64,000 nucleotides of DNA, taken from contig OY762911.1 of assembly GCA_963666565.1 (NCBI GenBank), forward strand, positions 1,632,001 to 1,696,000, written 5' to 3'. Below are positions 9,717 through 33,325 of this stretch, piece after piece. Within the stretch, counting starts at the first letter, position 1, and the number at the start of each line of letters is the position of its first letter. The position numbers and the translations under genes are program-made. The DNA is from Thermoanaerobaculia bacterium (GTDB taxonomy: Bacteria > Acidobacteriota > Thermoanaerobaculia > Multivoradales > Multivoraceae). The notes below the pieces were generated by a model. The model ran no database searches. It was not told the DNA's origin and worked only from the letters and a program-made list of their open reading frames with translations.

Positions 9717-11141
9717 TCAGTACGCGTTCTCTCTCAGCCCGCGGCGCAGCGTCAGCCACAGGATCTGGAGGTCGAGGCGGAGGCTCCAGTTTTCGATGTA
9801 GTAGAGGTCGTACTGGATGCGCTTGCGGATGGAGGTGTTGCCGCGCCAGCCGTGGACCTGGGCCCAGCCGGTGAGGCCGGACTTGACGCGGTGGCGGAGC
9901 ATGTAGTTCGGGATCTTGTCGCGGAACTCGCGGACGAAGGCGGGGCGTTCGGGGCGGGGACCGACGAAGGACATGTCGCCCAGGAAGATGTTCCAGATCT
10001 GGGGCAGCTCGTCGAGCGACCAGCGGCGCAGGAAGGCGCCGAAGCGGGTGCGCCGGGGGTCGTCCTCCGTTGCCCAGACCGGGCCGGTCTTCGATTCCGC
10101 GCCGACTCGCATCGAGCGGAACTTCAGGATCATGAAGGAGCGGCCGTCCAGGCCCATCCGCTCCTGGCGGTAGAAGAGCGGCCCCCGGTCCTCCAGCTTG
10201 ATCAGCAGCGCCACGACCGGCAGGAAGGGCAGCAGCGCGACCATCGCGCCGGCCGCGAGGACGATGTCCAGCGTACGCTTGGCCAGGCTCGACCAGCCCT
10301 CCATCGGCACGTGCGAGAGGTTGATGACCGGCGTGCCGTCGACGTCCTCGATCTCGGCCCGCAGGGTCGCGTACTGCAGGACGTTCGGGACGAGCCGAAT
10401 CTCGATCAGTTCGTTGCCGATGCGGTCGAGCAGGTCGAGGATCTTGCGGTGGGCGGCGAAGGGCAGGGCGATCATCACCTGGTCGACGCCGTTCCGTTCG
10501 ATCGTCTCCTCGAGTTCGTCCAGGGCGCCCAGGACCGGCACGCCGGCGGGTGCCGCGTGCCGCTTCTCCGGGTCGTCGTCGAGGAAGCCGACGACCTCGT
10601 AGCCGAGTTCCCGGTGGCGCACCAGCTTGGCCGCGATCTCCTCGCCGCTGTCGCCGGCGCCGACGATCAGGATGCGGCGCACGTTGTGGCCGCCGCGGCG
10701 AACCGTGCGCAGGACGGCGCGGGTGACAAGCCGCAGGAGCGCGACGAGGAAGATGTCGGTCGCGATGAACAGGGCGAAGAACGCCCGGCTATAGGAGAAG
10801 GGGTCGTCCGAGCCGGCCTGGGTCAGGCGGTCGAACGTCAGGACCGAGGTCAGGATGACCAGCGCCAGGATGGTGGCGACGACGATGCTGATCGTCTCGT
10901 CCACCCGGCTGTGCCCCCGGCGGATGCGGTAGAGGCCGTGGAAGTAGAAGACCGTGGGCCAGATCAGGACGATGAACGGCAGCATCCTGAGGTAGGGCTC
11001 GAAGTCGGGCACCGACTTCGTGATTTCGATGACCGGCTGGACGAACCGCAGGTACCAGGCCAGGAAGAAGGCGCCGACGGTCGCGGCGATGTCCGTGCCG
11101 AGGTTGAGGGCGGCGGTGACGCGAAGTTGCCTGTGGAGCAC
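9717..11141 (-). CDS. Undecaprenyl-phosphate glucose phosphotransferase (WcaJ-like)
   Basis: KFRSM, DDPRRT, LDELPQ, MSFVGPRPERP, GLTGWAQV, DLYYIENWSL. Confidence 0.93.
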   Translation of the reverse strand: MLHRQLRVTAALNLGTDIAATVGAFFLAWYLRFVQPVIEITKSVPDFEPYLRMLPFIVLIWPTVFYFHGLYRIRRGHSRVDETISIVVATILALVILTSVLTFDRLTQAGSDDPFSYSRAFFALFIATDIFLVALLRLVTRAVLRTVRRGGHNVRRILIVGAGDSGEEIAAKLVRHRELGYEVVGFLDDDPEKRHAAPAGVPVLGALDELEETIERNGVDQVMIALPFAAHRKILDLLDRIGNELIEIRLVPNVLQYATLRAEIEDVDGTPVINLSHVPMEGWSSLAKRTLDIVLAAGAMVALLPFLPVVALLIKLEDRGPLFYRQERMGLDGRSFMILKFRSMRVGAESKTGPVWATEDDPRRTRFGAFLRRWSLDELPQIWNIFLGDMSFVGPRPERPAFVREFRDKIPNYMLRHRVKSGLTGWAQVHGWRGNTSIRKRIQYDLYYIENWSLRLDLQILWLTLRRGLRENAY

Positions 11142-17776: not shown

Positions 17777-19018
<1,242 letters not shown>

Positions 19019-19144
19019 CGCGCGCCTGGGTGCGTGTGTCCTCCGACCGCTGGCGCCGAGGGCGGCCGGGAGGTTCGCGGCGGGCTGCTAGTATCGTCGT
19101 CTCAATCAGTTACAGCAGGTGCCGCGCGCCAGAAAGGAACGGAC

Positions 19145-19876
19145 ATGGCTGCATCGACCTCTTCGAACCCCGCCACCAGGATGGGAGGGCTGGCTCTGCT
19201 CGTCGGAGTCGTTCTGCTGTTTGTCGCATCGTTCCTCCTTCCCGGGGGCGTGCTCAACCCGGTGGACCAGACCGACTTCCCTCTGGCCCTTGAGACGATG
19301 GCCGCGAACGCCAGCGCCGCGCATCTGGCGTCGATGCTGTCGATCGGCGGGATGTTCCTCTACATGTACGCCGCCTCCACGTGGCTCCGCCTGCCCGGAA
19401 CGACCGGGTTCGGCGGCGCCTGCCTGCGGTTGGGGGCGTTCGCGAGCATGTTCGGCTGGAGCCTCTACCTCGTCGCGATGGGCATGAGGCAGTTCAGCGT
19501 CCACCTGATGCAGCGCGGCATGCAGCCCGGCGCCGATCAGGCCATGCTGGAGTCCTTCGCCCTCAGCGCCTACGCGGCGATGGCCGGCATCGTTGTGGCG
19601 CTGGTCAGCGTCTATCCGCTCGCGTCCATCCTGGTCGGCATCGGCCTTGCCTCGCGTTTCGACTCGGTGGGCCTCTTCAAGGTGGCCTCCTGCGGCTTCG
19701 TCGTTCTCGGGGTCGTGGCAAGCATCAACCACATGGTCCTTCAGCACGTCCCCACGATCGATCCCAGGGTTCTCCTGGTGAACGACAACGGCATGCAAGC
19801 GCTCGGGTCGCTCTGCTTCGTCATCATCGGGATCGGGATGTACCGCGGCAGGAGCGAACTCACCTCGGAGGACTGA
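19145..19876 (+). CDS. Hypothetical membrane protein (~6 TM)
   Basis: ATG after AAAGGA; strongly hydrophobic. Confidence 0.65.
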   Translation: MAASTSSNPATRMGGLALLVGVVLLFVASFLLPGGVLNPVDQTDFPLALETMAANASAAHLASMLSIGGMFLYMYAASTWLRLPGTTGFGGACLRLGAFASMFGWSLYLVAMGMRQFSVHLMQRGMQPGADQAMLESFALSAYAAMAGIVVALVSVYPLASILVGIGLASRFDSVGLFKVASCGFVVLGVVASINHMVLQHVPTIDPRVLLVNDNGMQALGSLCFVIIGIGMYRGRSELTSED

Positions 19877-19936
19877 CCGGCGGCAGGGAGGCGCCGGCCT
19901 CCGGCCGGCGCGTCTTTCCGGCCGCTTCCGGCGGCA

Positions 19937-19960
19937 GCGGGTCGGAAGACCCGCGCACCC
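19937..19960 (-). repeat. REP-A copy
   Basis: GCGGGTCGGAAGACCCGCGCACCC on the + strand. Confidence 0.85.
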
Positions 19961-19997
19961 GGCGGAAGGCCCGCGCCACTCCGGTCGCGGAGCCTGC

Positions 19998-20026
19998 TTG
20001 ACACTCCGTGCCTTCCGGTGCAGTAT
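19998..20026 (+). promoter_or_regulatory. Putative sigma70 promoter of the aro-his-trp operon
   Basis: TTGACA (19998-20003), 17 nt, CAGTAT (20021-20026). Confidence 0.55.
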
Positions 20027-20071
20027 GCGCGCTCCTGGAGCCGTTCCGACCCGTTCCGCCTTCGCCTCGTC

Positions 20072-20176
20072 ATGAACTCACCGGCCAGCACTCCCGCGTT
20101 CGTCGCCGCCTCCGTCGCTTCGGCGACCGGCGTCGTCACGGCTTCCTGGTGGGCTCACGGTCACGGCAAGGGCTGA
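20072..20176 (+). CDS. Putative attenuation leader peptide with Trp-Trp and His-x-His codons
   Basis: MNSPASTPAFVAASVASATGVVTASWWAHGHGKG*; lies between the promoter and a terminator in front of his+trp genes. Confidence 0.75.
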   Translation: MNSPASTPAFVAASVASATGVVTASWWAHGHGKG

Positions 20177-20220
20177 ACCGGGGTCAGGTCCCGGTACGCG
20201 GTCCGGGACGAGGGCGAGCG

Positions 20221-20258
20221 AAAGACCTCCTTCCGGATCGAAGGAGGTCTTTTCGTTT
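20221..20258 (+). terminator. Attenuator terminator hairpin (also contains the aroD SD)
   Basis: AAAGACCTCCTTC/GAAGGAGGTCTTT 13-bp stem, 6-nt loop, T-rich tail. Confidence 0.8.
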
Positions 20259-21768
20259 GAGTTCGACAACCGAGAATCCGCCGCGAGCCACCCTGGTGGC
20301 GTCGCTGACCGAGGCGCCCGGCGCGTCCGGCGACGAGGTGCGCGCTCTCTCGGAACAGGCGGACTGCCTGGAGGTGCGAGCGGACCTGGTCGGCGAAGTC
20401 GGCGTCGAGTGGTTGCGGGAGCGGTTCGCGGGCGAGCTCCTCTACACGCTGCGGAGCGAGGCGGAAGGCGGTCGCGGGCCGGTCGAGCCGGAGCGCCGCG
20501 CGGCGCTGCTCTCGGCGGCCCGCGGCTACGACCTGGTCGACATCGAGGCGGACCGCGACCTGGGCAGGACCGTCCTGGACGCGGTCGAACCGGGACGACG
20601 CGTCGTTTCCTGGCACGGGCGGGCCGGAGACGTGAAGGCCCTGCGGGGCCGCCTGAGGCAGGTTTCCGGGGTCGAGGCGCGGCTCTGCAAGCTGGTCGCC
20701 GCCGCGGAGAACTCCGGCGAGGAGCTGGCGCCGCTGGAACTGCTGCTCGAGGAGGGCCGGGAGGACGTCGCGGCCTTCTCGATGGGCGCCGTCGGCGCCT
20801 GGACCCGGCTGGTGGCGCCTCGCTTCGGCGCGCCGTGGATCTACGGCGCCGCGGGGCCGCTCGCCGCCGCGCCCGGCCAGCCGTCCATCGAACGGCTGCG
20901 GGCCGACTACGACCTGCCGCGCCTGCATTGGGCCAGACGGCTGTTCGGCGTCGTCGGCCACCCGACGGCGCACAGCCTGTCGCCCAGGCTGCACAACGCC
21001 GGCTATCGGGACCGGGGCGAGGAGGCGCTCTACGTCGCCTTCGACGCGCCGTCGTTCGAAGAGTTCTGGAGCGAGGTCGCGCGAAGCGACTTCTTCGACC
21101 GCGCGGGCCTGCCCCTGGGAGGCCTGAGCGTCACCGCGCCGCACAAGGCGGCTGCGCTGGCGGCGGCGTCGGAGGCCGGTGACCTGGCGGTGCGCACGGC
21201 GGGCGCGAACACCCTGCTCCCCGGCGCCGGCGAGGCGGCCGGGAGGCCGTGGCGGGCCGAGAGCACCGACCCGGAAGGGGTCGCGGGTCCGCTCCTGCGC
21301 CGCGGCATCGACCTGGCGGGCCGGCCGGCGGCGGTCATCGGCGCCGGCGGGGCCGGGCGTGCGGCCGCCGCCGGTCTCGCCGCGGCGGGCGCCGAAGTCG
21401 CGCTCGCCAACCGCACGGAGTCGACCGGCCGGGCGGCCGCCTCGTCGCTCGGCGTCGCCTTCGTGCCGCTCGATGAACTGGAACCGGGCGCCTTCGACAT
21501 TGTGGTCAACGCCACCTCGCTCGGCGGGCGGCCCGGCGATCCGCTGCCCTGCGACCCGGCGGCGGTCCGTCCCGCGGCGGCCGCGGTCGAGCTGGTCTAC
21601 GGCGGCGGCCCGACGCCCTGGGGCCGGGCGCTCGCGGACCGGGGCGTCGCCGTGGTCGACGGCCGGGAAGTGCTGCTGCATCAGGGACTGGCGCAGTTCG
21701 AGGCGATGACGGGGAAGGACCTGCCCTTCGAGGTCGGCGCAGCGGCCCTGGGTCTGGAGGCGCGATGA
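20257..21768 (+). CDS. aroE: Fused type I 3-dehydroquinate dehydratase / shikimate dehydrogenase (AroD-AroE)
   Basis: N-term EVRADL, YTLRSEAEGG, APGQ; C-term GHPTAHSLSP, SVTAPHK, GAGGAGRA, VNAT; TTG start 9 nt after GAAGGAGG. Confidence 0.88.
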   Translation: MSSTTENPPRATLVASLTEAPGASGDEVRALSEQADCLEVRADLVGEVGVEWLRERFAGELLYTLRSEAEGGRGPVEPERRAALLSAARGYDLVDIEADRDLGRTVLDAVEPGRRVVSWHGRAGDVKALRGRLRQVSGVEARLCKLVAAAENSGEELAPLELLLEEGREDVAAFSMGAVGAWTRLVAPRFGAPWIYGAAGPLAAAPGQPSIERLRADYDLPRLHWARRLFGVVGHPTAHSLSPRLHNAGYRDRGEEALYVAFDAPSFEEFWSEVARSDFFDRAGLPLGGLSVTAPHKAAALAAASEAGDLAVRTAGANTLLPGAGEAAGRPWRAESTDPEGVAGPLLRRGIDLAGRPAAVIGAGGAGRAAAAGLAAAGAEVALANRTESTGRAAASSLGVAFVPLDELEPGAFDIVVNATSLGGRPGDPLPCDPAAVRPAAAAVELVYGGGPTPWGRALADRGVAVVDGREVLLHQGLAQFEAMTGKDLPFEVGAAALGLEAR

Positions 21769-22832
21769 AGATCTCCGCGGGCCTGCCGACCGGAGTGTCG
21801 GCCGCTCTCTTCGACAGCGCCAGGCGGCGCCGGCGCCTGGAGGCGCGCCTTTCGGGTCTGCTGGAGGAACGCGGCTTCGCCGAGGTCCTGCTGCCCATCC
21901 TCGACTACTTCGAACCGTACCGGCCGTTGCTGACGGGCCGGCGGCTGGAGCAGCTCTACCGCTTCGTCGACCGGGACGGTCAACTGCTCGTCCTGCGCGG
22001 CGACTTCACGCCGATGCTGGCGCGGCTGCTGGCGCCGCACCTCGACGAACTGGAGTTGCCGCTGCGCCTCTACTACCGGGGCGATGTCGTGCGGCACCAG
22101 CCGCTGCGTCCGGGCCGGATGCGCGAGTACTCCCAGTTGGGCGCCGAACTGCTCGGCGGCGACGAGGCCGAGGCGGACGAGGGGATGCTGACGCTGTTCC
22201 TCGACCTGCTGCTCGAGGCGCGGGGCGCCGAAGGGGACGCTCTGTCGGGAACCGGCGCGGGAAGCCAGCCAGAAGGCCGATGCACCGACAGTGAGTCTGA
22301 GGCCGAGCGCACTGGCGAGGACGCGGCGCTTCGGGTCGTGCTCGGCGCGGCGGGAGCGCTCGACGAGGCCCTTCTGGCTGCCGGCGAGCAAGAAGCCTCC
22401 GACCTTGCGTTGCGGATCGCCAGCCGCGACCGGGCCGCGGCGCGCCGGGCCGGCCTGGCCGAGGTCGTCGAACGCGGCTACCCGTCCGACCTCTCCGTTC
22501 TGGGCGAGGCCGCCGGCGCGGTGTCCGAGCTGGTCGCCCTGCGCGACCGACTGGCCGCCGCGTACCGGTCCCGCGGCATCGAGATCGAGGTCGACCTCGC
22601 CGAGTTCGCCGCCGCCGCGCTCGACAGGCGCATCGGCGTGGCCGCGGGTCCGCGCGGCTACTACGACGGCCTGATGTTCGCGGCCTACGCGCCGGGGACG
22701 GCCCTGGCCCTCGGCGTCGGCGGCCGCTACGACCGGGTGTTCCGCTCGCTCAGCGGCGACTGCTCCGCGGTCGGCTTCTCGTTCGGCCTCGATCTGCTGC
22801 TGGAACTCGGCGCCGCGGAGGCGCGGTCATGA
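21765..22832 (+). CDS. hisZ: ATP phosphoribosyltransferase regulatory subunit
   Basis: LRGDFTPMLAR, REYSQLGAE, YYDGLMF, GGRYD; next to a short HisG. Confidence 0.9.
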   Translation: MKISAGLPTGVSAALFDSARRRRRLEARLSGLLEERGFAEVLLPILDYFEPYRPLLTGRRLEQLYRFVDRDGQLLVLRGDFTPMLARLLAPHLDELELPLRLYYRGDVVRHQPLRPGRMREYSQLGAELLGGDEAEADEGMLTLFLDLLLEARGAEGDALSGTGAGSQPEGRCTDSESEAERTGEDAALRVVLGAAGALDEALLAAGEQEASDLALRIASRDRAAARRAGLAEVVERGYPSDLSVLGEAAGAVSELVALRDRLAAAYRSRGIEIEVDLAEFAAAALDRRIGVAAGPRGYYDGLMFAAYAPGTALALGVGGRYDRVFRSLSGDCSAVGFSFGLDLLLELGAAEARS

Positions 22833-22908
22833 TCGCGTTCCGCATGTCGCCCGGCTTCTCGTTCGGTCTCGATCGTCTGCTCGAACCTGGGACGGCGGAG
22901 GCACGGTC

Positions 22909-23547
22909 ATGATCGCGTTCGGTCTTCCGAAGGGGCGCAACCTCGGTCCGGCGCGCGCCGCCCTCTCGGCCGCGGGGCTCAACCTCGACGGTCTCGGTTC
23001 CTCGCGGCTGCGCCAACGGTTTCCCGATCAGTACGTGCTGGAGACGCCGGTCGAGGTGTTGCTGCTCAAGGACTGGGACCTGCCGCTCTACGTCGAGCAT
23101 GGGATCGTCGACTGCGCGATCGTCGGTTCGGACGTGCTCGAGGAAACGCAGCCCGACGTCTTCCGGCCGCTCCAACTGCGTGACGGCAGGAGCCGCCTGT
23201 CCCTGATCGCCGAAACGCCCGGCCTGCCGAAGCGGAGCGGCCAGCTCCGGGCGGCGACCCGCTATCCGGCCTGGGCCGCGCGGCTGCTGGCTGAGCGAAA
23301 CCTCCACGTCGAGGTGATCCACCTGACCAGTTCGATCGAACTCGGCCCGCTGCTCGACCTGACGGACGTGGCGGTAGACATCGTGCAGACCGGCGGCACG
23401 CTGCGAGCCCACGACCTGCACGAAGTCGAGGTGCTGGCGGAGGTGGCGCCGACTTTCGTCGTCAACCGGGCCTCGTTCCACGCCCACCGGCGCCGCCTGA
23501 GCCGGCTGCTCGGCGCGCTCGAAGAACGGGAGGCGGGCGATGACTGA
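22909..23547 (+). CDS. hisG: ATP phosphoribosyltransferase (short form)
   Basis: LPKGR, DLPLYVEHG, ATRYP, DIVQTGGTL. Confidence 0.9.
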   Translation: MIAFGLPKGRNLGPARAALSAAGLNLDGLGSSRLRQRFPDQYVLETPVEVLLLKDWDLPLYVEHGIVDCAIVGSDVLEETQPDVFRPLQLRDGRSRLSLIAETPGLPKRSGQLRAATRYPAWAARLLAERNLHVEVIHLTSSIELGPLLDLTDVAVDIVQTGGTLRAHDLHEVEVLAEVAPTFVVNRASFHAHRRRLSRLLGALEEREAGDD

Positions 23548-25195
23548 GTCGCGTTCCGGTGTGCCTGAGGCGGTGGAGGCTGGCATGGCCAAGGCGCCTT
23601 CCGCGCCTGAAGAAGCGGAGGCCGGCGTGGCCAGCGTGCGCTCCGGCGTGCTTCGGGTGCTCGCCGCCGGAGGTCCGGCCGGCCGGGAGCGGCTGGAACT
23701 CCTCGACCGGCGGGGCCGCGGCGGCATCGCCGCGGAGATCCGCCAGACGGCCGCCGAGATCGTCGACTGCGTACGCGCCGGCGGCGACGCCGCCCTGCTC
23801 GAAGCGGTCGCCCGCTTCGACGGCTACCAGGCGGAGACGGCGGATTCCGCTACGGTGGAACGGGCTGCCCGCTGGGTGCGCGGGTCTTCCGACCCGCTGC
23901 CGCCGGAGGCGGCGGAAGTACGCACCGCCCGGAAGGCCGGCGCCGCTCTCGTCGCCGGCCTTCGGCCGGCGGCCCTGTCGTCCGGGCTCGGCCGCTCCGC
24001 AGCGCCGCCCGTGAGCGGGTCGGAAGACCCGCGCACCCAGCGGGCGGCCCGTTCGATGGAAGCGCGGTCGGCCACGGCGCTGCGCCTGACCGGCGGCGGC
24101 GACGCCGGCGACGAAGTCGCGCCCTCCGTCCTCGCCGCCATCGACCGGGCCCGGGACGCGATCGAGACTTGGCATCGCGCCCTGCTGCGCGGCTCCGGCG
24201 TCGAACGCGTCGAGCGCGACGGCGTCACGATCGAGGAGCGCCGAATCGCCATTCGCCGCGTCGGCCTCTACGTGCCGGGCGGCCGCTTCCCCTATCCCTC
24301 GACCGTGCTGATGACCGCGATACCAGCGCGGCTCGCCGGCGTGGAGGAGATCGTCGTCGCCACGCCGCCCCGGGCGTATCTGGAGAGCCCGGTGCTGCGG
24401 CACGTCCTGGACCTCGCCGGAGTCGACGAGGTGTGGGGCATGGGCGGCGCCCACGCGGTCGCGGCGCTTGCCTACGGCACGGAGTCGATCCGCCCCGTCG
24501 ACCTGATCGCGGGACCGGGCAACGCCTGGGTCGCGGCCGCCAAGCAGCATGTCGCCTCGGACGTCGGCGTCGACCGGGACGCCGGGCCGTCCGAGGTCGT
24601 CGTCGTCGCCACCGCGGGCGCGCCGGCGGAGTGCGTCGCCGCCGACCTGCTGGCGCAGGCGGAGCACGACCCGCTGGCGGTCGCCGTCCTGGTCACCGAC
24701 TCCGCCGACCTTGCCGCCCGCGTCGCCGCGGAAGTCGACCGGCAACTCGCCGGCCTGCCGACGGCGGAGACTGCGGCCGCGGCTCTGGATCGCCACGGCG
24801 CGGCCTTCGTCGCCGCCGACTTGGACGAGGCGCTCGCGCTCGCCGAGCGCATCGCCCCGGAGCACCTGCAGTTGATCGGCGGCGCCGCCGAGGCGCGCGC
24901 GGGCGAGCTCCGCAACGCCGGCGCCGTGTTCGTCGGCGCGTCGTCGCCGGTCGCGTTCGGGGACTACGTCGCCGGCCCCAGCCACGTCCTGCCGACGGGC
25001 GGCAGCGCGCGCTTCTCCTCCGGCCTCGGCACGGACGACTTCCTGCGCCGCAGCCACACCGTCCGCTTCTCGGACGAGGCCGCGGCGGCCTGGGCCGGCG
25101 CGGTCGAGACCCTGGCGACCACGGAGGGGCTCGCCGCCCACGCGGCGGCCGCGCGGTTGCGCCGCGAGTCCGGCGACCGGGAGGCCGCGCCATGA
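23540..25195 (+). CDS. hisD: Histidinol dehydrogenase (with ~66-aa in-frame REP-doublet insertion)
   Basis: GLYVPGG, GPGNAWV, AGPSE, QAEH, APEHL, GDYVAGPSHVLPT. Confidence 0.92.
   Translation: MTESRSGVPEAVEAGMAKAPSAPEEAEAGVASVRSGVLRVLAAGGPAGRERLELLDRRGRGGIAAEIRQTAAEIVDCVRAGGDAALLEAVARFDGYQAETADSATVERAARWVRGSSDPLPPEAAEVRTARKAGAALVAGLRPAALSSGLGRSAAPPVSGSEDPRTQRAARSMEARSATALRLTGGGDAGDEVAPSVLAAIDRARDAIETWHRALLRGSGVERVERDGVTIEERRIAIRRVGLYVPGGRFPYPSTVLMTAIPARLAGVEEIVVATPPRAYLESPVLRHVLDLAGVDEVWGMGGAHAVAALAYGTESIRPVDLIAGPGNAWVAAAKQHVASDVGVDRDAGPSEVVVVATAGAPAECVAADLLAQAEHDPLAVAVLVTDSADLAARVAAEVDRQLAGLPTAETAAAALDRHGAAFVAADLDEALALAERIAPEHLQLIGGAAEARAGELRNAGAVFVGASSPVAFGDYVAGPSHVLPTGGSARFSSGLGTDDFLRRSHTVRFSDEAAAAWAGAVETLATTEGLAAHAAAARLRRESGDREAAP
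23858..24054. mobile_element. REP doublet (REPIN-like) inserted in frame in hisD
   Basis: Inverted REP-A copies 23874-23897 and 24015-24038 with extended arms; spacer homologous to the intergenic doublet at 50085-50221. Confidence 0.8.
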
Positions 25196-26334
25196 GCGGC
25201 CGCGCCGAACGGGCGGCCGCCCTGGTGCGGCCGGAGGTGCGCGACCTGTCGGTCTACTCGCTGCACCAGGTCGAGGCCCGCTACAAGCTCGATCAGAACG
25301 AGGCGCCCTGGGACCTGCCTGGGTCGCTCAAGCGGGAGGCGCTGGCCCGGCTGGCCGACCGGCCCTGGTCGGAGTACCCGGACTTTCACGCCGACCGGCT
25401 GCGCCGGCTGATCGGCGACCTGCACGAGTGGCCCATGGAGGGCGTCCTGGTCGGCAACGGCTCCGGCGAACTCCTCGCGACCGTGCTCGAGGGGGTCGTC
25501 CGCCCCGGCCAGGAAGTGCTCATCTGCGACCCGAGTTTCAGTCCCTACAGGACCTTCGTCGCGCGCGCCGCCGGCGTGCCGCGGCATCTGGAACCGGCTC
25601 CCGACCTGGGCCTGCAGATGGACGCACTCCAGGCCGAGGTCGACCGCGACCCGCGGCGGCCGGCGCTCCTCTGCACGCCGAACAACCCGACCGGCGCGGC
25701 GGCGGCGCCCGAAGCGGTGGAGCGCCTGGCGCGGTCCCTGGACGCGGCCCTTCTGCTCGACAACGCGTACGGCGAGTTCTGCCGTCACGACTACCGGCCG
25801 CTGCTGCGGGCGAACCGGAACATCGTCCTCTTCCGGACCCTGTCGAAGGCCTGGTCCCTGGGCGGAATCCGGCTCGGCTACCTGCTCGCCGCGCCCGAAC
25901 TCGTCGCCCAGTTGATCAAGGTCAAGCTGGCCTACAGCGTCGGCCATGCCGCGGCCGCGATCGGCGAGGTGGCGCTGGAGCACGCCCGCCGTTTCCCTCG
26001 CCGGATCGCGGTAGTGCTGGCGCGGCGGAGCCAGTGGGCCGCGATGCTCCGGGAGTTCGGCTTCGAGGTCTTCGAGTCGGAGGCGAACTTCCTGCTCGCC
26101 CGCCACCCGCGCTGCGGCGAGATCCGCGACGGTCTGGCGGCCGCGGGCATCCTGATCCGGGACGTCAGCGGGTACCCGGGGCTGGCGAACTGCATGAGAA
26201 TCGGCATCGGCGCCGGGCCGGCCCTGCGCGCGACCCGCCGCGCGCTGGCCGGGATGTCGGGGGCCGCCGGCGCGAAAGCGCCGGCGCACCCGGTTTCCGC
26301 CGCGCAAGCCCCGAACGGGGGAGGAGAACGATGA
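25192..26334 (+). CDS. hisC: Histidinol-phosphate aminotransferase
   Basis: LDQNE, YP, GNGSGE, PNNPTG, DNAY, RTLSKAWSLGGIRLGY. Confidence 0.93.
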   Translation: MSGRAERAAALVRPEVRDLSVYSLHQVEARYKLDQNEAPWDLPGSLKREALARLADRPWSEYPDFHADRLRRLIGDLHEWPMEGVLVGNGSGELLATVLEGVVRPGQEVLICDPSFSPYRTFVARAAGVPRHLEPAPDLGLQMDALQAEVDRDPRRPALLCTPNNPTGAAAAPEAVERLARSLDAALLLDNAYGEFCRHDYRPLLRANRNIVLFRTLSKAWSLGGIRLGYLLAAPELVAQLIKVKLAYSVGHAAAAIGEVALEHARRFPRRIAVVLARRSQWAAMLREFGFEVFESEANFLLARHPRCGEIRDGLAAAGILIRDVSGYPGLANCMRIGIGAGPALRATRRALAGMSGAAGAKAPAHPVSAAQAPNGGGER

Positions 26335-26948
26335 GAACAGCGTCGATCGACCGGAGAACGTCCGAGACCCAGGTCCGCGCCGAACTGTCGCTCGACGGCG
26401 GGGACCGCCGGATCGACACGCCGAACGGGTTCTTCAGCCACATGCTGGACGCGCTGACCCGCCACGGCGGCCTGGGGCTAGACCTCGCGGCCCGCGGCGA
26501 TACGGAGATCGACCTCCATCACACGGTGGAGGACACCGGAATCGTGCTCGGCGACGCGCTCCGGGAGGCGCTCGGCGACCGCGCCGGGGTGCGCCGGTTC
26601 GCGCACGCCTACGCTCCGCTCGACGAGGCCCTGGCGCGCGCCGTGGTCGATCTCTCGGGCCGGGGTTCCTTCCACTTCCGGCTGCCGCCGGACCTGGAGC
26701 AGGCGTGGGTGACGACCGAGTTCCCGCTCACCCTGGTGGGCGACTTCTTCGGCGCCCTGGCCGACCGCGGCCGGCTGACCCTGCACCTGGACGTGCTCCG
26801 CGGGCGCAACCCGCACCACGTCGCCGAGGCCGCCTTCAAGGCGGCGGCGCTCTCATTGCGCGAGGCAGTGTCGCTCCGGCCGGCGGCGTCTCCGGGGGCG
26901 GAAGGGGCCGCCGACGTACCGAGCACGAAGGGGAGCCTCACCGCATGA
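26331..26948 (+). CDS. hisB: Imidazoleglycerol-phosphate dehydratase
   Basis: HHTVED, PLDEAL, NPHHVAEAAFKA, VPSTKG. Confidence 0.95.
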   Translation: MRTASIDRRTSETQVRAELSLDGGDRRIDTPNGFFSHMLDALTRHGGLGLDLAARGDTEIDLHHTVEDTGIVLGDALREALGDRAGVRRFAHAYAPLDEALARAVVDLSGRGSFHFRLPPDLEQAWVTTEFPLTLVGDFFGALADRGRLTLHLDVLRGRNPHHVAEAAFKAAALSLREAVSLRPAASPGAEGAADVPSTKGSLTA

Positions 26949-27718
26949 CCGGCGCGGCGACATCCCGGGAAGCCGGGCTACCCGCCGGTATCCGGCGCGC
27001 TTCCCCCGCGTCGCAGTTCGCCCGGCCCGCGGGCGCGGGCGTCCGCGCGACGGTGATCGACGCCGGGGTCGGCAACATCGGCAACCTGGTGCGGGCGCTC
27101 CGCCACCTGGGCGCCGAGGTCGAGATCACCTGCGACCCGGCAACGATCCGCGCCTCCCGCTGCCTCGTGCTGCCGGGAGTCGGCGCCTTCCGGCCGCCGC
27201 GCGAGGTCCTGCGCGGCGCGCCCGAGGAGGCGATCCGGGCCGCCCTCGAAGGCGGCGCCACCCTGCTCGGCATCTGCATCGGCTACCAGCTCCTGTTCGA
27301 CGGCAGCGAGGAGTTCGGGACGACGGACGGCCTCGCGCTGCTTCCCGGCCGGGTTACCGAACTGCCCGGCGGCGTACCGCTGCCCCACATCGGCTGGAAC
27401 CGCGTCTTCGCGGTCGAGGACCACCCCCTGCTCGCCGGCTCGACGAACGACGACCACTACTACTTCGTCCACTCCTTCGCGCCCGAGGGCGTCCCGGAGG
27501 AGTCGGTCCTCGGGCGCTGCCGGCATGGCCGCAGTTTCCCGGCGATCGCCGGTCGCGGCCGGGTCGCCGGCACCCAGTTCCACCCCGAGAAGAGCGGCGC
27601 CGCCGGCCTGCGGCTGCTGAGCAACTACCTGGCCTGGGCCGGCGACCTCGCCGCCGGCGCCGATGGAGGAGCCCCGGAGGGCCATGGAGGAACACATGCA
27701 ACTGCTGCCGGCCATTGA
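26945..27718 (+). CDS. hisH: Imidazole glycerol phosphate synthase glutaminase subunit
   Basis: LPGVGAF, GICIG, PHIGWN, YFVHS, QFHPEKS. Confidence 0.93.
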   Translation: MTGAATSREAGLPAGIRRASPASQFARPAGAGVRATVIDAGVGNIGNLVRALRHLGAEVEITCDPATIRASRCLVLPGVGAFRPPREVLRGAPEEAIRAALEGGATLLGICIGYQLLFDGSEEFGTTDGLALLPGRVTELPGGVPLPHIGWNRVFAVEDHPLLAGSTNDDHYYFVHSFAPEGVPEESVLGRCRHGRSFPAIAGRGRVAGTQFHPEKSGAAGLRLLSNYLAWAGDLAAGADGGAPEGHGGTHATAAGH

Positions 27719-28493
27719 CCTGCGGCGCGGCCAGGTCGTGCGCCTTATGCGCGGCGACGACGCCCGCCGCACGGTCTACGACGCCGACCCGGGCGCCGCT
27801 CTCCGCCGCTACCGCGAGGCGGGGGTGGCCCGCGTCCACGTCGTCGACCTGGACGCGGCGTTCGGCGGCCCGCCGCAGCGCGGCGTCGTCGAAAGACTCG
27901 CGCGGCAGGCGCCGGCCGCCGCAGGAAAGGGGTCCAAGGCTGACGTGGAAGCGCGGACGTCCAGTTCGCCGTCCGGGGCGGCGCCGCGGGCCGGCATCCA
28001 GCTCGGCGGCGGCCTGCGCGACCGCGAGGCGGTGGAGTGGGCCTTCGCGGCCGGCTGCGAACGGGCCGTCGCGACCTCGCTCGTCGTGCGCGACTTCGAC
28101 GCGTTCGCAGACCTCTGCGGTGACTACCCGGGCCGCATGGTAGCGGCGCTCGACATGGACGGCGGCGAGGTCCGCCTTGCCGGCTGGACCGAGTCGGCCG
28201 ACCGTTCGCCGGCGGCGCTCTGCGCGCAACTCGCCGGCCTGCCGATCGCCGCCGTGCTCGTGACCGACATTTCGCGGGACGGGATGATGCAGGGCCCGAA
28301 CATCGACCTCGCCTGCCGGATCGGCGACCTGGCCGGAGCGCCGGCGATCCTCTCCGGCGGCGTCCGCTCGGCGGCCGATCTCGAAGCCGCGGCGCGGCGG
28401 CCCGAACTCGAAGCCGCGATCGTCGGCCGTGCGCTCTACGACGGTTCGCTCAGCCTGAACGAGGCAATTGCAGCCTGCGGGAGCTCGCCGTGA
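27696..28493 (+). CDS. hisA: ProFAR isomerase
   Basis: [42 protein letters not shown]. Confidence 0.92.
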
Positions 28494-29299
28494 GAGCCAC
28501 CATCGAGCCGACCGGCCTGACCCGCCGGATCATCCCGTGCCTCGACGTCGCCGCCGGCCGCGTCGTCAAGGGCGTCCAGTTCAAGAACCTGACCGACCAC
28601 GGCGACCCGACCGAGGCGGCGGCGCGCTACGCCGCCGAGGGCGCCGACGAGATCGTCTTCCTGGACATTATGGCCGCGCCCGAGCGCCGCGACACGGACC
28701 TGGACTGGGTGCGGCGGACGGCCGAGCAGGTGTTCATCCCTCTGAGCGTCGCCGGCGGGGTGCGCAGCGTCGAGGATGGCCGGAAGCTGCTCCTGGCTGG
28801 CGCCGACAAGCTGGGGATCAACACGGCCGCGGTCGCCGAGCCGGAACTGCTGACCCGCCTCGCCGAACGCTTCGGCAGCCAGTGCGTCGTGCTCCCGGTG
28901 GACGCGAAGCGCCGCGAGGAAGACGGCGCGGACGGCCCGCGCTGGGAGGTCGTCACCCACGGCGGCCGCACGCCTACCGGACTCGACGCGCTCGAGTGGA
29001 TCGAGGCCGGCATCGAGCGCGGCGCCGGCGAGATCCTGCTCACCAGCATCGACAGCGACGGCACGAAGGAGGGCTACGACCTGGAACTGCTGCGCCGGGC
29101 CTCGGCGCTCTCGCCCGTGCCGGTCATCGCCTCCGGCGGCGCCGGTACGCTGGAGCACTTGGCCGACGCGCTCGAGACCGGCGCCGCCGCGGTGCTTGCC
29201 GCCTCGATCTTCCACCAGTCGACCTACTCGGTCGGCGCGGTCAAGGACTACCTCGGCCGGCGCTACCCGATCCGCCTTGAGACAGGAGAGAACACGTGA
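28490..29299 (+). CDS. hisF: Imidazole glycerol phosphate synthase cyclase subunit
   Basis: [35 protein letters not shown]. Confidence 0.96.
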
Positions 29300-30057
29300 C
29301 GGAAGCGACGATCGACCCCGCGGCCCTCACCTACGACGACCGCGGCCTGCTGCCCGTCGTGGTCCAGGACGTGCTCTCGGGCGCGGTGCTCATGCTCGCC
29401 TACGCGAACCGCGAGGCGGTGGAACTGACGCTCGCCACGGGTCAGGCCCACTTCTTCAGCCGCTCCCGCCAGGAGCTCTGGCGCAAGGGCGCCACCTCGG
29501 GCAACACGCTGGCCGTGGTCGAGGTGCTCCAGGACTGCGACCGGGACGCGCTGCTGGTGCGGGCGCTGCCGGCGGGGCCGGCGTGCCACAACTACACGCG
29601 GAGTTGCTTCGAGCCGAACGTGGCCGAGTTCGAGCTCGGCTGGCTGGCGCACATCCTCGCCGAGCGCGCCTCCGCGCCGCCGGAGGAGAGCTACACCGCG
29701 CGCTTGGTCGGCCAGGGCGTGGACCGGATCGCCCGCAAGGTCGCGGAGGAGGCGGGGGAGACCGTGATCGCCGGGGTGCGCGCCGACGCCGAGCCCGGGT
29801 CGGTAGAACGCCGCGACGATCTGGCCGCCGAGACCGCCGACCTCGCGTACCACCTGCTGGTCCTGCTCCAGGCCACCGGTGTCGAACTCGCCGACGTGGC
29901 CGCCGAACTTGGACGGCGCCACCAGGAAGCGCGGGGAACCGGCCGTGCGCCGGGTCCGCCGGCGTCCGCATCGGCTACCGGATGCGGGTCGGAAGACCCG
30001 CGCACCCGGCGCGCGCGGCGGCAGGTTGCGGGCAAGACCGGGAAGGAGCCGTCATGA
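29296..30057 (+). CDS. hisIE: Bifunctional PR-AMP cyclohydrolase / PR-ATP pyrophosphatase
   Basis: [34 protein letters not shown]; C-terminal tail contains a REP-A copy (29984-30007). Confidence 0.93.
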
Positions 30058-31565
30058 CCCGCCCTGCCGCGGCCCTCGCCCACACCCGGGACTTCCTCGC
30101 CGACACCTCGACCCCGCTCGGCGTCTACCGCAAGCTGGCCGCTCAGGCGGAAGCGGCGGGAGGCGCAGGATCCCGGCGCTTTCTGCTGGAGAGCATCACC
30201 GGCGGCGAGCACGTCTCGCGCTACAGCTTCCTGGGCGCGAGCCCCTCCCGGGTATGCCGCGTGCATCTCGACCGGCTCGAGATCGAGGATCTGCGGAACG
30301 GCGGCGAGGTCCGGGTCGAGAAGGGCAATCCGCTGCCGAAGCTGCGGCGCCTGCTCGACGGCGTGGCCGCGGACCAGGCGCCGCCGCTGCCGTTCGCGGG
30401 CGGCTGGGTCTTCGCCTTCGGTTTCGACGCCATCCGCCTGGTCGAGCCGCGCCTGGTCGACCATCCGGCCGGGCGACCGCCGGACCCGTTCGGCCTGCCG
30501 ATCGCGACGCTTGCCCGCTTCGACGACGTCCTCGTGTTCGACCACGCGCGCCAGCGGATCGTCGCGGTGGCGAACGAGATCGAGGGCGAGAGCACAGCGG
30601 CCGACGCGGAAGCGCGGCTCGACGCCTTGCAGGCGGTGCTCGAGAGCCGGGGCGAGGCGATGGCGGCGCGGGTCGAGGACCGGGGGATCAAGGCGGAGAC
30701 CGCCGCTCCCACGCTGAGCGACGAGGAGCACGGCCGGGCGGTCAACGTGGCGAAGGAGTACATCGCCGCCGGCGACATCTTCCAGGTCGTGCTCGCCCGG
30801 CGCTGGAAGATCGACCTCGGCGTGCCGCCGGCGACCGTCTACCGGGCGTTGCGGCTGGTGAATCCGTCGCCGTACATGGTGCTGTTCGAGGCGCCCGAGG
30901 TGTCGCTGATCGGCGCTTCGCCGGAGATGCTGGTGCGGCGCACGGGGCGGCGGCTGGAAGTGCGGCCCATCGCCGGTACCCGGCCGTGCGGGGGGACGGC
31001 GGCCCGGGACCGGGCCCTGGCCGAGGAGCTCCTCGCCGACCCGAAGGAGCGCGCCGAGCACGTCATGCTGGTCGACCTGGGGCGCAACGACCTCGGCCGG
31101 GTGGCGTCGCTGGGCAGCGTCTCGGTCGCCGACTTCATGGTCATCGAGCACTACAGCGACGTGATGCACATCGTCAGTTCGGTGGAGGCGGAGCAGGCCC
31201 CCGAGGCCGGGAACGGCGCCGGTTCGGCCCTCGACGCGCTGCTCGCCTGCTTCCCGGCCGGCACGCTGTCAGGCGCGCCGAAGATCCGCGCCGTCGAGAT
31301 CATCGACGAGCTGGAACCGGAGGCGCGCGGCATGTACGGCGGCTCCGTCGGCTACTTCTCGTTCGGCGGCGACATGGACGCTTGCATCACGATCCGCACG
31401 CTCGCGGTCGTGAACGGCGAAGCCTCGATCACCGCGGGCGGCGGCATCGTCGCCGATTCCGAGCCGGCGCGCGAGGCCCAGGAGACGCGCGACAAGGCCG
31501 CGGCGCTGCTGCGGGCGGTGGCCCTGGCGCGCGACCTGGAGGGCCGGCGGGAGTCCTCGCCATGA
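30054..31565 (+). CDS. trpE: Anthranilate synthase component I
   Basis: LLES, NPSPYM, PIAGT, EHVMLVDLGRND, GTLSGAPK. Confidence 0.95.
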   Translation: MTRPAAALAHTRDFLADTSTPLGVYRKLAAQAEAAGGAGSRRFLLESITGGEHVSRYSFLGASPSRVCRVHLDRLEIEDLRNGGEVRVEKGNPLPKLRRLLDGVAADQAPPLPFAGGWVFAFGFDAIRLVEPRLVDHPAGRPPDPFGLPIATLARFDDVLVFDHARQRIVAVANEIEGESTAADAEARLDALQAVLESRGEAMAARVEDRGIKAETAAPTLSDEEHGRAVNVAKEYIAAGDIFQVVLARRWKIDLGVPPATVYRALRLVNPSPYMVLFEAPEVSLIGASPEMLVRRTGRRLEVRPIAGTRPCGGTAARDRALAEELLADPKERAEHVMLVDLGRNDLGRVASLGSVSVADFMVIEHYSDVMHIVSSVEAEQAPEAGNGAGSALDALLACFPAGTLSGAPKIRAVEIIDELEPEARGMYGGSVGYFSFGGDMDACITIRTLAVVNGEASITAGGGIVADSEPAREAQETRDKAAALLRAVALARDLEGRRESSP

Positions 31566-32140
31566 TCCTCGTCATCGACAACTACGACTCCTTCACCTAC
31601 AACCTGGTGCAGATGCTGGGAGGCCTGGGCGCGGCGCTTCAGGTGGTGCGCAACGACGTCGAGAGCGTGCCGGATCTGCTCGCGCGCGACGCCGGCGGGA
31701 TCGTCCTGTCGCCGGGTCCGGGGCGGCCGGAGGACGCCGGTGTCTGCATCGACCTGCTGCGCGCGCGGCCCGACGTGCCCCTGCTGGGAGTCTGCCTCGG
31801 GCACCAGGCGCTCGGGGCCGCGTTCGGCGGCACGGTCGACCGGGCCGGCGTGCTGATGCACGGCAAGACCTCCGAAGTCGAGCACCGCGGAGTCGGCCTG
31901 CTCGCCGGCCTGCCGTCGCCCTTCGTCGCCACCCGCTACCACTCGCTCGCCGTGGAGGAGGACAGCCTGCCGGCGTCGCTCGAACCGCTGGCGTGGAGCG
32001 AGGACGGCACGCTGATGGCGATGAGGCACCGGGAACTGCCATATTGGGGCGTCCAGTTCCATCCGGAGTCCGTGCTGACCGACACCGGCCCGGAGTTGCT
32101 CCGGAACTTCCTCGATCTGTGTGGAGGCGACGATGATTGA
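31562..32140 (+). CDS. trpG: Anthranilate synthase component II
   Basis: IDNYDSFTYNL, SPGPG, GVCLGHQ, RYHSL, QFHPES. Confidence 0.95.
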   Translation: MILVIDNYDSFTYNLVQMLGGLGAALQVVRNDVESVPDLLARDAGGIVLSPGPGRPEDAGVCIDLLRARPDVPLLGVCLGHQALGAAFGGTVDRAGVLMHGKTSEVEHRGVGLLAGLPSPFVATRYHSLAVEEDSLPASLEPLAWSEDGTLMAMRHRELPYWGVQFHPESVLTDTGPELLRNFLDLCGGDDD

Positions 32141-32174
32141 TCTCAACCCTGGGAGTCGACGCTGCGCGACCGCT

Positions 32175-32198
32175 GGGTGCGCGGGTCTTCCGACCCGC
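32175..32198 (+). repeat. REP-A copy between trpG and trpD
   Basis: Exact 24-mer. Confidence 0.85.
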
Positions 32199-32284
32199 CG
32201 CCGCCGAAGGCGGCCAGTTTCATGCGCGTCAGCGGCCGACGCGAAGGCCCCTGCCGCGCCCTTCCGCCAAACGGGAGGCGACCG

Positions 32285-33325
32285 ATGACCGATCTCAATC
32301 TCTCGGCTCTGTTGCGGGCGGCAATCGCCGGGGAGGACCTGCCCGCGGCGACGGTGGAGGAGTTGTTCGGCCGTCTGATGGACGGCGAACTCTCCGAGGT
32401 GTGGAAGAGCGCGTTCCTCGTCGCGCTGGCGGCGAAGGGCGAGTCGGTCGGCGAGATCGCCGGCGCCGCGCGGGCGATGCGGGCGCGCGCCGCGCGGGTC
32501 GAGCACGGAAGCTCCGGCGCGATCGACACCTGCGGCACCGGCGGCGACGGCCGCGGCACGTTCAACATCTCGACCGCGGCCGCGCTGGTCGCGGCGGCGG
32601 GGGGCGCCCGGGTCGCCAAGCACGGCAACCGGGCGGTGTCGAGCCGGTCCGGGTCGGCGGACGTGCTGGACGCGCTCGGCGTGACGCTCAGCGGCGACAC
32701 GCGGGCTCTTGGGCGTTGCCTGGACGAGGTCGGCATCGCCTTCCTGTTCGCGCCCATGCTCCATCCGGCGATGGCCCAGGTCATGCCGGTGCGGAAGGAA
32801 CTCGGCGTGCGCACCCTGTTCAACGTGCTGGGACCCCTGACCAACCCGGCCGGCGCGAAGCGCCAGTTGATCGGCGTCTTCTCGCCCGATCTCGTCGAGC
32901 CGATCGCGCGGGTGCTGCTGGAACTCGGCAGCGAGCACGCGCTGGTCGTCCACGGCGACGGCCTGGACGAGATGACGACGACGGGGACGACCGCCGTCGC
33001 CGAGGTCCGGGACGGCGCGGTCGGCACGTACGACGTCCGGCCCGGCGACTTCGGGCTGGCCGAGGCGTCGCCGGAGGACCTGGTCGGCGGCGACCCCGAA
33101 CGGAACGTCGAGTTGATGCGTGGCGTGCTCGGAGGCGGGGAAGGCGCGCTGGCCGACATCACATGCCTGAATGCCGGGGCCGCGCTCTACGTGGCCGGCC
33201 GGGCGGATTCGCTGGCCGCCGGCGTCGCCGCGGCGCGGGAAGTCCAGCGCTCTGGCGCGGCCGCCGCGAAGCTCGACGAACTCGTCGGCTGGGCCGGCTG
33301 GGGCGATGCGGGCGGCGGAGACTGA
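32285..33325 (+). CDS. trpD: Anthranilate phosphoribosyltransferase
   Basis: DTCGTGGDG, NIST, KHGNR, GSADVL, GLDE; ATG after GGAGG. Confidence 0.96.
   Translation: MTDLNLSALLRAAIAGEDLPAATVEELFGRLMDGELSEVWKSAFLVALAAKGESVGEIAGAARAMRARAARVEHGSSGAIDTCGTGGDGRGTFNISTAAALVAAAGGARVAKHGNRAVSSRSGSADVLDALGVTLSGDTRALGRCLDEVGIAFLFAPMLHPAMAQVMPVRKELGVRTLFNVLGPLTNPAGAKRQLIGVFSPDLVEPIARVLLELGSEHALVVHGDGLDEMTTTGTTAVAEVRDGAVGTYDVRPGDFGLAEASPEDLVGGDPERNVELMRGVLGGGEGALADITCLNAGAALYVAGRADSLAAGVAAAREVQRSGAAAAKLDELVGWAGWGDAGGGD

Follow-up and report, generated by a model that had tools for sequence, protein, structure and literature searches.

A candidate Trp and His leader-peptide attenuator ahead of a 17-gene aroDE-his-trp operon in a Thermoanaerobaculia bacterium

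The leader region and the operon it precedes

A 64,000-nucleotide stretch of contig OY762911.1 (assembly GCA_963666565.1) from a Thermoanaerobaculia bacterium, hereafter called the window, contains 17 genes in the order aroDE-hisZGDCBHAFIE-trpEGDCFBA, all on the plus strand and running from 20257 to 37439 without a sizeable gap. Directly 5' of aroDE lies the subject of this report, a leader region that comprises a promoter-like site, a short open reading frame (ORF) with Trp and His codons near its end, and a chain of five segments, the last of which holds the Shine-Dalgarno (SD) sequence of aroDE. An earlier note, made from the nucleotide sequence alone, had described a promoter, a 34-codon ORF, a GC hairpin, a terminator and an SD sequence in this region, and all of them lie where it placed them. 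The fused aro-his-trp operon that it proposed is borne out by NCBIfam and Pfam assignments, which account for the 17 genes. The features are listed below by window coordinates.

19998-20026, plus strand: promoter-like site, TTGACA at 19998-20003, a 17-nucleotide spacer and CAGTAT at 20021-20026 (from reading of the sequence)
20072-20176, plus strand: predicted leader peptide ORF, ATG at 20072, 34 codons and TGA at 20174-20176, MNSPASTPAFVAASVASATGVVTASWWAHGHGKG (from reading of the sequence and from 28 aligned elements)
20147-20152, plus strand: tandem Trp codons TGG TGG, the only Trp codons in the leader ORF
20156-20164, plus strand: His-Gly-His codons CAC GGT CAC, with His at 20156-20158 and 20162-20164
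20177-20183, plus strand: segment 1, ACCGGGG, starting 1 nucleotide past the stop codon and able to pair with segment 2
20188-20195, plus strand: segment 2, GTCCCGGT, with segment 1 or segment 3 as alternative partners
20188-20194 with 20203-20209, plus strand: GC hairpin GTCCCGG/CCGGGAC (from reading of the sequence)
20202-20213, plus strand: segment 3, TCCGGGACGAGG, with segment 2 as partner (via 20203-20209) or, as putative antiterminator, segment 4
20220-20237, plus strand: segment 4, made up of the terminator 5' arm (20220-20233) and the overlapping partner of segment 3 (20226-20237)
20240-20256, plus strand: segment 5, the terminator 3' arm with the aroDE SD sequence GAAGGAGG at 20240-20247, then T-rich TCTTTTCGT
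20220-20253, plus strand: terminator stem of 14 pairs with a 6-nucleotide loop, followed by CGTTTG (terminator scan)
20257-21768, plus strand: aroDE, fused 3-dehydroquinate dehydratase/shikimate dehydrogenase, TTG start (NCBIfam aroD and aroE domains)
21765-37439, plus strand: hisZ, hisG, hisD, hisC, hisB, hisH, hisA, hisF, hisIE, trpE, trpG, trpD, trpC, trpF, trpB and trpA (NCBIfam and Pfam)

The C-terminus of the leader reads WWAHGHGKG. The ORF has no His codons besides the two listed, both of them CAC, and the second stands 17 nucleotides from the core of segment 1. A terminator scan of 18000-37500 found three terminator-like sites, of which 20220-20253 is the only strong one. The earlier note had given this stem 13 pairs and placed the aroDE SD in its 3' arm; the scan extends it to 14 pairs and leaves the SD where it was. 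The TTG at 20257 stands nine bases past the SD, and its use as the start codon is supported by AroDE homologs, 70-87% identical and many of them 504 residues long, that can be aligned from residue 1. The promoter-like site was unlisted by a consensus promoter scan because its -10 element, CAGTAT, matches TATAAT at three of six positions.

Recurrence of the element and its Trp and His codons

An alignment of 24 AroDE proteins (A1) was used to scan genome contigs, which gave 600 matched stretches, 214 of them encoding relatives; the best 80 of these 214 resolved into 79 loci, identified here by numbers with the prefix L. We inspected the 360 nucleotides 5' of aroDE in 46 Thermoanaerobaculia-type loci (L001-L044, L054 and L077), and the remaining 33, more distant loci were screened by covariance model only. 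A short ORF with a tail of Trp and His (W/H) codons, the same hairpins and an SD-bearing stem precede aroDE in 27 of the 46 loci inspected. These 27 elements and that of the window were aligned by MAFFT (A2) and then by a covariance model, R1 (A4), built on the terminating fold described below. In all 28, the ORF has a W/H-rich C-terminal tail and a stop codon 3 to 10 nucleotides before segment 1.

A search of the window and the 79 loci with R1, 1.38 Mb in total, returns exactly these 28 elements with E-values of 4.3e-09 or less, the next match having E = 0.0019, and detects no further copy in the window, be it ahead of trpE or at another site. Because the same architecture recurs in 27 related loci, the element is far beyond chance. 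Matches below the 28 elements are reverse-strand echoes of the terminator, plus one weak match (24 bits, E = 0.0039) at 8241-8342 of L066, a Terriglobia locus, about 1.7 kb upstream of aroDE. When region 19850-20350 of the window was compared with all 4227 models of Rfam 15, no leader family was matched at E <= 10, the best match being RNAI with 23.2 bits against a gathering score of 47; seven relatives searched at the gathering score returned a tRNA only. T-box and metabolite riboswitch models were matched neither in that region nor in the seven relatives. For annotation, R1 supplies a model of this regulatory element, so far unannotated, in a class that is uncultured and common in the environment. 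The promoter-like site is retained as TTGACA-17-CAGTAT in L002, L003 and L004, 45-47 nucleotides 5' of the leader ATG, and TTGACA-17/19-TAAGCT occurs in L013, L034, L037, L038 and L040.

In the 28 leaders, counting the final 12 codons of each, Trp takes 52 of 336 positions (15.5%) and His 77 of 336 (22.9%), as compared with 0.8% and 2.1% of the 5278 residues in the window's operon proteins. The other two frames of the same tails hold 1 Trp and no His, and 3 Trp and 3 His, respectively, while the N-terminal remainders of the leaders, whose sequence is not conserved, hold 1 Trp and 11 His in 504 codons. This frame-specific signal argues for translation of the leader. Among the tails are WWAHGHGKG (in the window's clade), AWGWRGHHHHSVS, AWWGHVHHHAVT, GGWWHGVHHHGA and QWRWHGHVHP; runs of HHH or HHHH are found in most of the distant relatives, and Trp codons in 27 of the 28 leaders. 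The rare codon CAT supplies 37 of the 77 leader His codons, as compared with 26 of 211 aroDE His codons in the same GC-rich loci, an enrichment that fits selection on decoding, in a comparison that ignores shared ancestry. A passage by Elf and Ehrenberg (PMC1183508) stresses the fraction and choice of regulatory codons.

Codon content was compared with operon content by mapping the gene order downstream of aroDE with tblastn. Twenty cases, the window and 19 loci, have his genes after aroDE, and all 20 have a leader with two to four His codons in its tail, accompanied in 19 by Trp codons (the exception is L014). In 12 loci trpE comes directly after aroDE, and five of these have a leader, with tail His counts of 1 in L007, 0 in L009, 2 in L010, 0 in L020 and 3 in L038. 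The two operon types differ in their His counts (one-sided Mann-Whitney p = 0.005, ignoring phylogeny). A third class of 12 loci has no his or trp operon after aroDE within the locus (L028, with a weak 30% hisZ-like match, and L042, with a trpG-like match, are counted here), and none of its members has a leader. Three leader-bearing contigs, L022, L024 and L034, end before the downstream operon type can be read. The earlier note had named conservation of the W/H codons in relatives as a check on its proposal; such tails are conserved in 27 of 46 loci, and the number of His codons follows the his genes.

An AroDE tree of 44 loci and the window, from which L024 (partial), L077 and L045-L079 were left out, places the five aro-trp leaders at no fewer than three positions, that is, in at least three separate places. 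A supported clade unites L007, L009 and L010 with L006 and L019, both aro-his-trp loci; L020 adjoins L023; and L038 is nested on a short branch within L034/L037/L040, the other members of that clade having the his block. The most economical interpretation is that the his block was lost more than once and that His codons then decayed in L007, L009 and L020, in which case L038 and L010 would be recent his losses with the His codons still present. The relatives form a natural experiment that allows direct study of how the content of regulatory codons tracks that of the operon.

Alternative pairings and spacing to the leader stop codon

The five conserved segments could fit together in two exclusive ways. 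In the terminating fold, which is also the RNAalifold consensus, segment 2 pairs with segment 3 and segment 4 with segment 5. Over the 28 elements, 90.4% of 570 cells are paired in this fold, and both-side changes occur in 9 of 21 pairs, a result equaled in 0 of 500 shuffles. The 2:3 helix has 93.8% of its cells paired and both-side changes in 3 of 8 pairs, and the 4:5 helix 88.2% and 6 of 13. In the read-through fold, segment 1 pairs with segment 2 and segment 3 with segment 4, and 89.0% (A2) or 88.1% (A4) of cells are paired, against 33-66% for slid partners.

The CCGGG core of segment 1 is near-invariant, is complementary to segment 2, and in all 28 elements starts 3-10 nucleotides past the leader stop codon's first base; in the window the 1:2 hairpin (20177-20183 with 20189-20195) has 7 base pairs. 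Segment 3 (CCGGGACGAGG) and the terminator 5' arm (CCTCCTTCCGG) are complementary to each other. The 3:4 helix, 20202-20213 with 20226-20237, has 11 base pairs and one C/C mismatch, with 91.8-92.9% of cells paired in the 28 sequences. Matching changes in this helix are seen by eye in L006 and L021, although the fixed-column count misses part of them because L006 has a one-base deletion. Helix free energies in the window are -10.6 kcal/mol for 1:2, -14.6 for 2:3, -16.6 for 3:4 and -18.0 for the 4:5 core, so that the putative antiterminator is nearly as strong as the terminator. Every inner segment has to match two different partners, with the SD as anchor of the whole chain, which would explain the strong sequence conservation.

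A different antiterminator had been put forward in the earlier note, in which GGGGTC/AGGTC (20180-20190) pairs with GACCTC and encloses the hairpin GTCCCGG/CCGGGAC. That pairing, GGGGTC at 20180-20185 with GACCTC at 20224-20229, fills 61.6% of 164 cells, which is no improvement on sliding the partners by +1 to +3 columns (56.7-60.4%), and its first pair can form in 1 of 28 sequences, the window only. We rejected it as the mechanism that is conserved. Judged by the conserved pairings, the hairpin appears to belong to the terminating state instead, and the relay of five segments fits better. The broader proposal of that note, an attenuator reading Trp and His codons, loses its antiterminator but gains strong comparative support from the W...H tails in 27 of 46 loci, their frame-specific enrichment, a number of His codons that goes with the his genes, and a constant spacing.

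That spacing is as follows. In 23 of 27 His-bearing leaders the last His codon lies 13-19 nucleotides before the segment 1 core. L022 and L024 have an extra His past the HHH run, and there the last His of the run is 16-17 nucleotides from the core; in L007 and L009, both aro-trp loci, the distance is 24 and 51 nucleotides. The interval from the last His codon to the stop varies from 0 to 3 codons, and that from the stop to segment 1 from 3 to 10 nucleotides, in compensation: the nearer His is to the stop, the farther away segment 1 lies. A ribosome is usually taken to shield about 12 nucleotides past the first base in the A site. One that has reached the stop codon would therefore cover segment 1 but not segment 2, and one waiting at a His or Trp codon would leave segment 1 free.

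At the other end of the chain, an SD-like purine block lies in the terminator 3' arm of all 28 elements, and the aroDE start codon, often TTG, follows 4-12 nucleotides past it in the 24 for which the scan placed one. A T tract (5 or more T among the 9 nucleotides past the 3' arm) is present in 22 of 28. SD masking thus appears to be the universal output of the element and termination the usual one, and the window is predicted to have both. The aroDE start, usually TTG, falls inside the terminator T tract (GTTTTG; 20254-20259 in the window), so that a single short run of bases doubles as U tract and initiation codon.

Interpretation, genomic setting and known systems

We consider it probable, at roughly three chances in four, that the element is a ribosome-mediated leader-peptide attenuator before the aroDE-his-trp operon of 17 genes in a bacterium that belongs to Thermoanaerobaculia, close to 'Candidatus Multivorans'. 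Its short ORF is enriched in codons for the amino acids made by the operon, and a predicted intrinsic terminator stands between leader and first structural gene, as in classical attenuators; as in translational attenuators, the SD lies in a hairpin arm that an alternative fold could release. From these comparisons we infer translation of the leader, choice of fold by ribosome position, termination, and sensing of both amino acids. The 34-codon leader would be translated while the RNA behind the ribosome folds, with the five conserved segments acting as a relay. When Trp-tRNA and His-tRNA are plentiful, the ribosome would reach the stop codon and cover segment 1; segment 2 would then pair with segment 3 (GTCCCGG/CCGGGAC), leaving segment 4 free for segment 5, and the 4:5 helix would act as an intrinsic terminator and bury the SD of aroDE. 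Under starvation, the ribosome would stall at the Trp codons (20147-20152) or at the His codons (20156-20164) with its front edge short of segment 1; segments 1 and 2 would pair, segment 3 would be free to pair with segment 4 (20202-20213 with 20226-20237), the terminator would be blocked, and the SD would stay open. Shortage of either amino acid would turn the operon on, an OR gate acting at the levels of transcription and translation. One leader thus appears to integrate the shortage of two amino acids from different pathways over a 17-gene, 17-kb supraoperon.

A number of observations weigh against this reading, some of them from folding. Covariation in the read-through fold is not significant (in A4, both-side changes in 2 of 18 pairs, with 199 of 500 shuffles as good), because the segment columns hardly vary, and what speaks for 1:2 and 3:4 is conserved pairing potential only. 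The earlier note had proposed that the alternative structures be folded. In the window the outcome agrees with the switch: RNA up to segment 4 adopts 1:2 (7 base pairs) and 3:4 (11 base pairs) as long as segment 1 is free and changes to 2:3 once segment 1 is masked, and with the ribosome front edge set at +12 the ensemble holds an expected 9.8 pairs of 3:4 in the stalled state versus 4.9 at the stop. Across the 28 loci, however, minimum free energy (MFE) folds contain both halves of the switch in only nine: leaving segment 1 free yields the read-through fold in 14 of 28, and masking it yields the 2:3 fold in 21 of 28. In the ensemble at +12, a ribosome on the last W/H codon gives the switch in 9 of 28 loci; placed on the first Trp codon it does so in 13 of 27, and on the first His codon in 13 of 26. 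Moving the front edge to +9 gives 11 of 28 loci, and to +15 gives 2 of 28, at which point the window itself no longer switches because segment 2 begins to be masked. The window's five closest relatives (L001-L004 and L041) hold 2:3 even with segment 1 free. These equilibrium results shift too much with the footprint that is assumed to decide the matter; and such tests, which ignore folding order during transcription, neither establish nor exclude the relay. Classical attenuators exploit just this folding order.

The untranslated leader is a related difficulty. Folds from 15 nucleotides 5' of the ATG to segment 4, made for 27 loci (L010 was skipped for its N bases), came out as read-through in 9, terminating in 10 and mixed in 8. 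An upstream "segment 0" that would hold segment 1 was sought across the 27 loci and rejected, no conserved partner being found, so the untranslated leader may default to read-through; in the full-length MFE fold of the window, segment 1 pairs with the 5' untranslated region, a pairing that is not general. Other points concern the leader and its codons. No SD-like motif lies upstream of ATG 20072 in the window or its clade, so a caveat of the earlier note holds; GGGA-like or GGAA-like motifs do precede the leader ATG in several distant relatives, by eye. The window's leader has two, non-adjacent His codons, and its sensitivity to His may be low because it has only two. The leader of L014 (8030-8232) has an HHH run (VVVHHHPVI) and no Trp codon, on a contig that ends at hisF, from which the absence of trp genes downstream would be predicted. 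The clearest exceptions to a strict match of codons to genes are L038, whose leader (9820-9992) has Trp codons and HHH, and L010, which retains H-I-H, though in both trpE adjoins aroDE. Finally, the T tract is poor in 6 of 28 elements (L001, L002, L003, L013, L020 and L022), and termination is therefore not universal.

This last point touches the alternative that we rank highest, though still as unlikely: that control is mainly or only translational, with 4:5 as an SD sequestor, stalling that opens or closes the ribosome binding site of aroDE, and termination minor or absent. An SD in the 3' arm of every element, a start codon 4-12 nucleotides on in the 24 where it was placed, and T tracts that are poor in L013, L020, L022 and the window's relatives L001-L003 would suit such control. 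Set against it are the T tract in 22 of 28 elements and, in the window, a 14-bp stem followed by TCTTTTCGTTTG that the terminator scan accepted. Moreover, one opened SD would need translational coupling or mRNA stabilization to reach 17 genes, and control of aroDE translation alone would poorly regulate the 16 his and trp genes downstream. This alternative is, in any case, more a change of emphasis inside one mechanism than a competitor to it. A good deal less probable is an attenuator for a single amino acid. A Trp-only attenuator with incidental His codons could account for the window, where two His codons flank a Gly, and for L020 and L009, which have no tail His codons; a His-only attenuator with incidental Trp codons could account for L014. 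Against such an attenuator stand a His content of 77 in 336 codons against a 2.1% background, HHH and HHHH runs in most distant relatives, a His-to-segment-1 spacing that holds at 13-19 nucleotides, enrichment of the rare CAT, the presence of His codons in 20 of 20 loci with his genes and their reduction in three of the five without, and Trp codons in 27 of 28 leaders.

If the hairpins were instead a site for a protein or small ligand, as in a riboswitch or a protein-dependent attenuator, the ORF would be a by-product. Segments such as GTCCCGG and CCGGGACGAG are conserved in sequence more than by covariation, as a sequence-specific binder would also bring about, and in the window's clade the leader ATG lacks an SD. 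We nonetheless regard this as very improbable: no Rfam family is matched by the window at E <= 10 or by seven relatives at the gathering score, the conservation is accounted for by two partners per segment and the SD anchor, and a binder leaves unexplained the enrichment of Trp and His in one frame, the stop codon fixed beside segment 1, and the constant His spacing. That the hairpin is a mere terminator of the upstream gene at 19034-19876, with the ORF there by chance, deserves almost no credence. The site does lie between two co-directional genes, but it is 344 nucleotides past the upstream stop codon and behind a conserved promoter-like site, and the upstream gene has a GC hairpin of its own at about 19891-19911. 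The 5' neighbor varies (fabF in L003, a homolog of the 19034 gene in L002) while the element stays with aroDE, being missing from none of the 20 aroDE-his loci and present in none of the 12 without a his or trp operon. The comparative data already contradict this explanation.

Beyond the window, the attenuator reading can be extended, tentatively and with the odds somewhat against it, to a lineage-wide class in Thermoanaerobaculia: a five-segment relay working as an OR gate, controlling termination and SD access through one hairpin, on by default when untranslated because no conserved partner holds segment 1, and with regulatory codons remodeled along with the gene blocks. Under this extension, His codons would have decayed in at least two lineages after his loss and would persist in L038, where the loss looks recent. 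If true, it would provide a natural series of attenuator specificity evolving together with operon content.

On its 5' side the element is preceded by fabF (17777-19018) and the unassigned ORF 19034-19876. Directly past the stop codon of the latter, at 19878-19925, a GC-rich hairpin GGCGCCGGCC/GGCCGGCGC (about 19891-19911) is followed by GTCTTTCC; it is probably that ORF's own terminator, with a fold z-score of only -1.7. On the 3' side, a convergent ORF lies beyond the end of trpA at 37439. The gene order of the operon is the same in L001-L004, L041, L006, L019, L030 and L037, as far as each locus extends. The trpD frame is 32177-33325 (Pfam PF00591 and PF02885). An ORF at 32137-33336 was considered for trpD and rejected, since it has no NCBIfam or Pfam match and the trpD domains occur only in the overlapping plus-strand frame 32177-33325; it is a high-GC shadow frame, yet has tblastn matches in relatives. 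In L041 (9930-10032), a 27-nucleotide in-frame tandem repeat of 3.8 copies with 98% matches occupies the first aroDE codons; it occurs also in L001, L002 and L003, and none is found in 19900-20600 of the window. Such 9-residue N-terminal repeats account for the spread of AroDE homologs from 504 to 552 residues. In L007, L029, L044, L041 and L054, aroDE, trpE, trpB or trpA is split among at least two tblastn pieces or interrupted by in-frame stops, which most probably reflects errors of assembly or frameshift in the metagenome genomes and not real pseudogenes. L011 is a locus lacking both a leader and downstream his or trp genes; directly 5' of its aroDE, at 9870-10000, a promoter close to consensus (TTGACA, 18 nucleotides, TGTAAT) is seen by eye.

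AroDE homologs at 70-87% identity come from metagenome genomes labeled Thermoanaerobaculia or Holophagales. The loci nearest to the window, at 79-83% AroDE identity, are titled 'Candidatus Multivorans' or Thermoanaerobaculia and are placed by NCBI taxonomy in the phylum Acidobacteriota, class Thermoanaerobaculia. The host organism is known solely from metagenome-assembled genomes.

Leader-peptide attenuation is in the textbooks, but to our knowledge nearly all documented cases come from Proteobacteria, Actinobacteria and a few Firmicutes. In E. coli trpL, a short leader has two tandem Trp codons three codons before its stop, and a terminator and mutually exclusive hairpins follow. The window shares the tandem Trp codons at that same place, the terminator before the first structural gene and, by prediction, the exclusive hairpins. 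In each, the first switch segment would lie under a ribosome at the stop codon and be left free by one stalled at the regulatory codons. The differences are several. The window has five segments to the four of trpL, that is, one extra relay hairpin; its regulatory codons lie outside the conserved pairing segments; it has no conserved upstream partner that would make the untranslated RNA terminate; the 3' arm of its terminator is the SD of the first gene; and His codons are present too. In sequence, and by Rfam, the two show no similarity. The hisL leader of Salmonella and E. coli has seven consecutive His codons and six segments. Several alternative hairpins used as a relay, and a run of His codons as sensor (HHH or HHHH in most relatives of the window), are common ground with hisL, whereas the window itself has only H-G-H together with Trp codons, and places trp and aro genes under the same control. 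By analogy, the geometry seems closest to trpL and the relay design closest to hisL.

Leaders for more than one amino acid include thr (Thr and Ile), ilvGMEDA (Ile, Leu and Val) and ilvBN (Val and Leu), in which, as proposed here, shortage of any one of them relieves termination. The amino acids of the thr and ilv leaders share a pathway or branch point; the two of the window come from separate pathways and are joined only by operon fusion. The His and Trp pathways are linked through their use of phosphoribosyl pyrophosphate and through the paralogous enzymes HisA/TrpF and HisH/TrpG. In B. subtilis, the aromatic supraoperon aroFBH-trpEDCFBA-hisC-tyrA-aroE is under the control of TRAP, the attenuation protein that binds trp RNA. 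It resembles the window in gathering aromatic genes, trp genes and a his-named gene into one unit with an attenuator 5' of the trp genes, but differs in that its attenuation is mediated by a protein, responds to Trp only, involves hisC alone among his genes, and acts at an internal site.

Leader-peptide attenuators have been predicted in Actinobacteria by comparative genomics (PMC1262725), and a His leader has been described for Bacillus hisZ/hisS (PMC2965389). As far as the relevant portions of these two papers go, they resemble the present case as comparative predictions outside Proteobacteria, some with SD-sequestering hairpins, and differ in being for single amino acids and outside Acidobacteriota. 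The consulted sections of PMC2965389, PMC4833913 and PMC1262725 mention no Acidobacteriota leader with an assigned function, and in the full-text literature searched, which does not take in surveys in subscription journals, there was no Trp and His leader, no aro-his-trp operon and no attenuation in Thermoanaerobaculia. The mechanism proposed here is classical leader-peptide attenuation, and appears well supported by comparison among relatives. What sets it apart is its setting and design: two amino acids from separate pathways, a 17-gene aro-his-trp unit, a terminator arm that doubles as the SD of the first gene, a relay with an odd number of segments, and the phylum in which it occurs.

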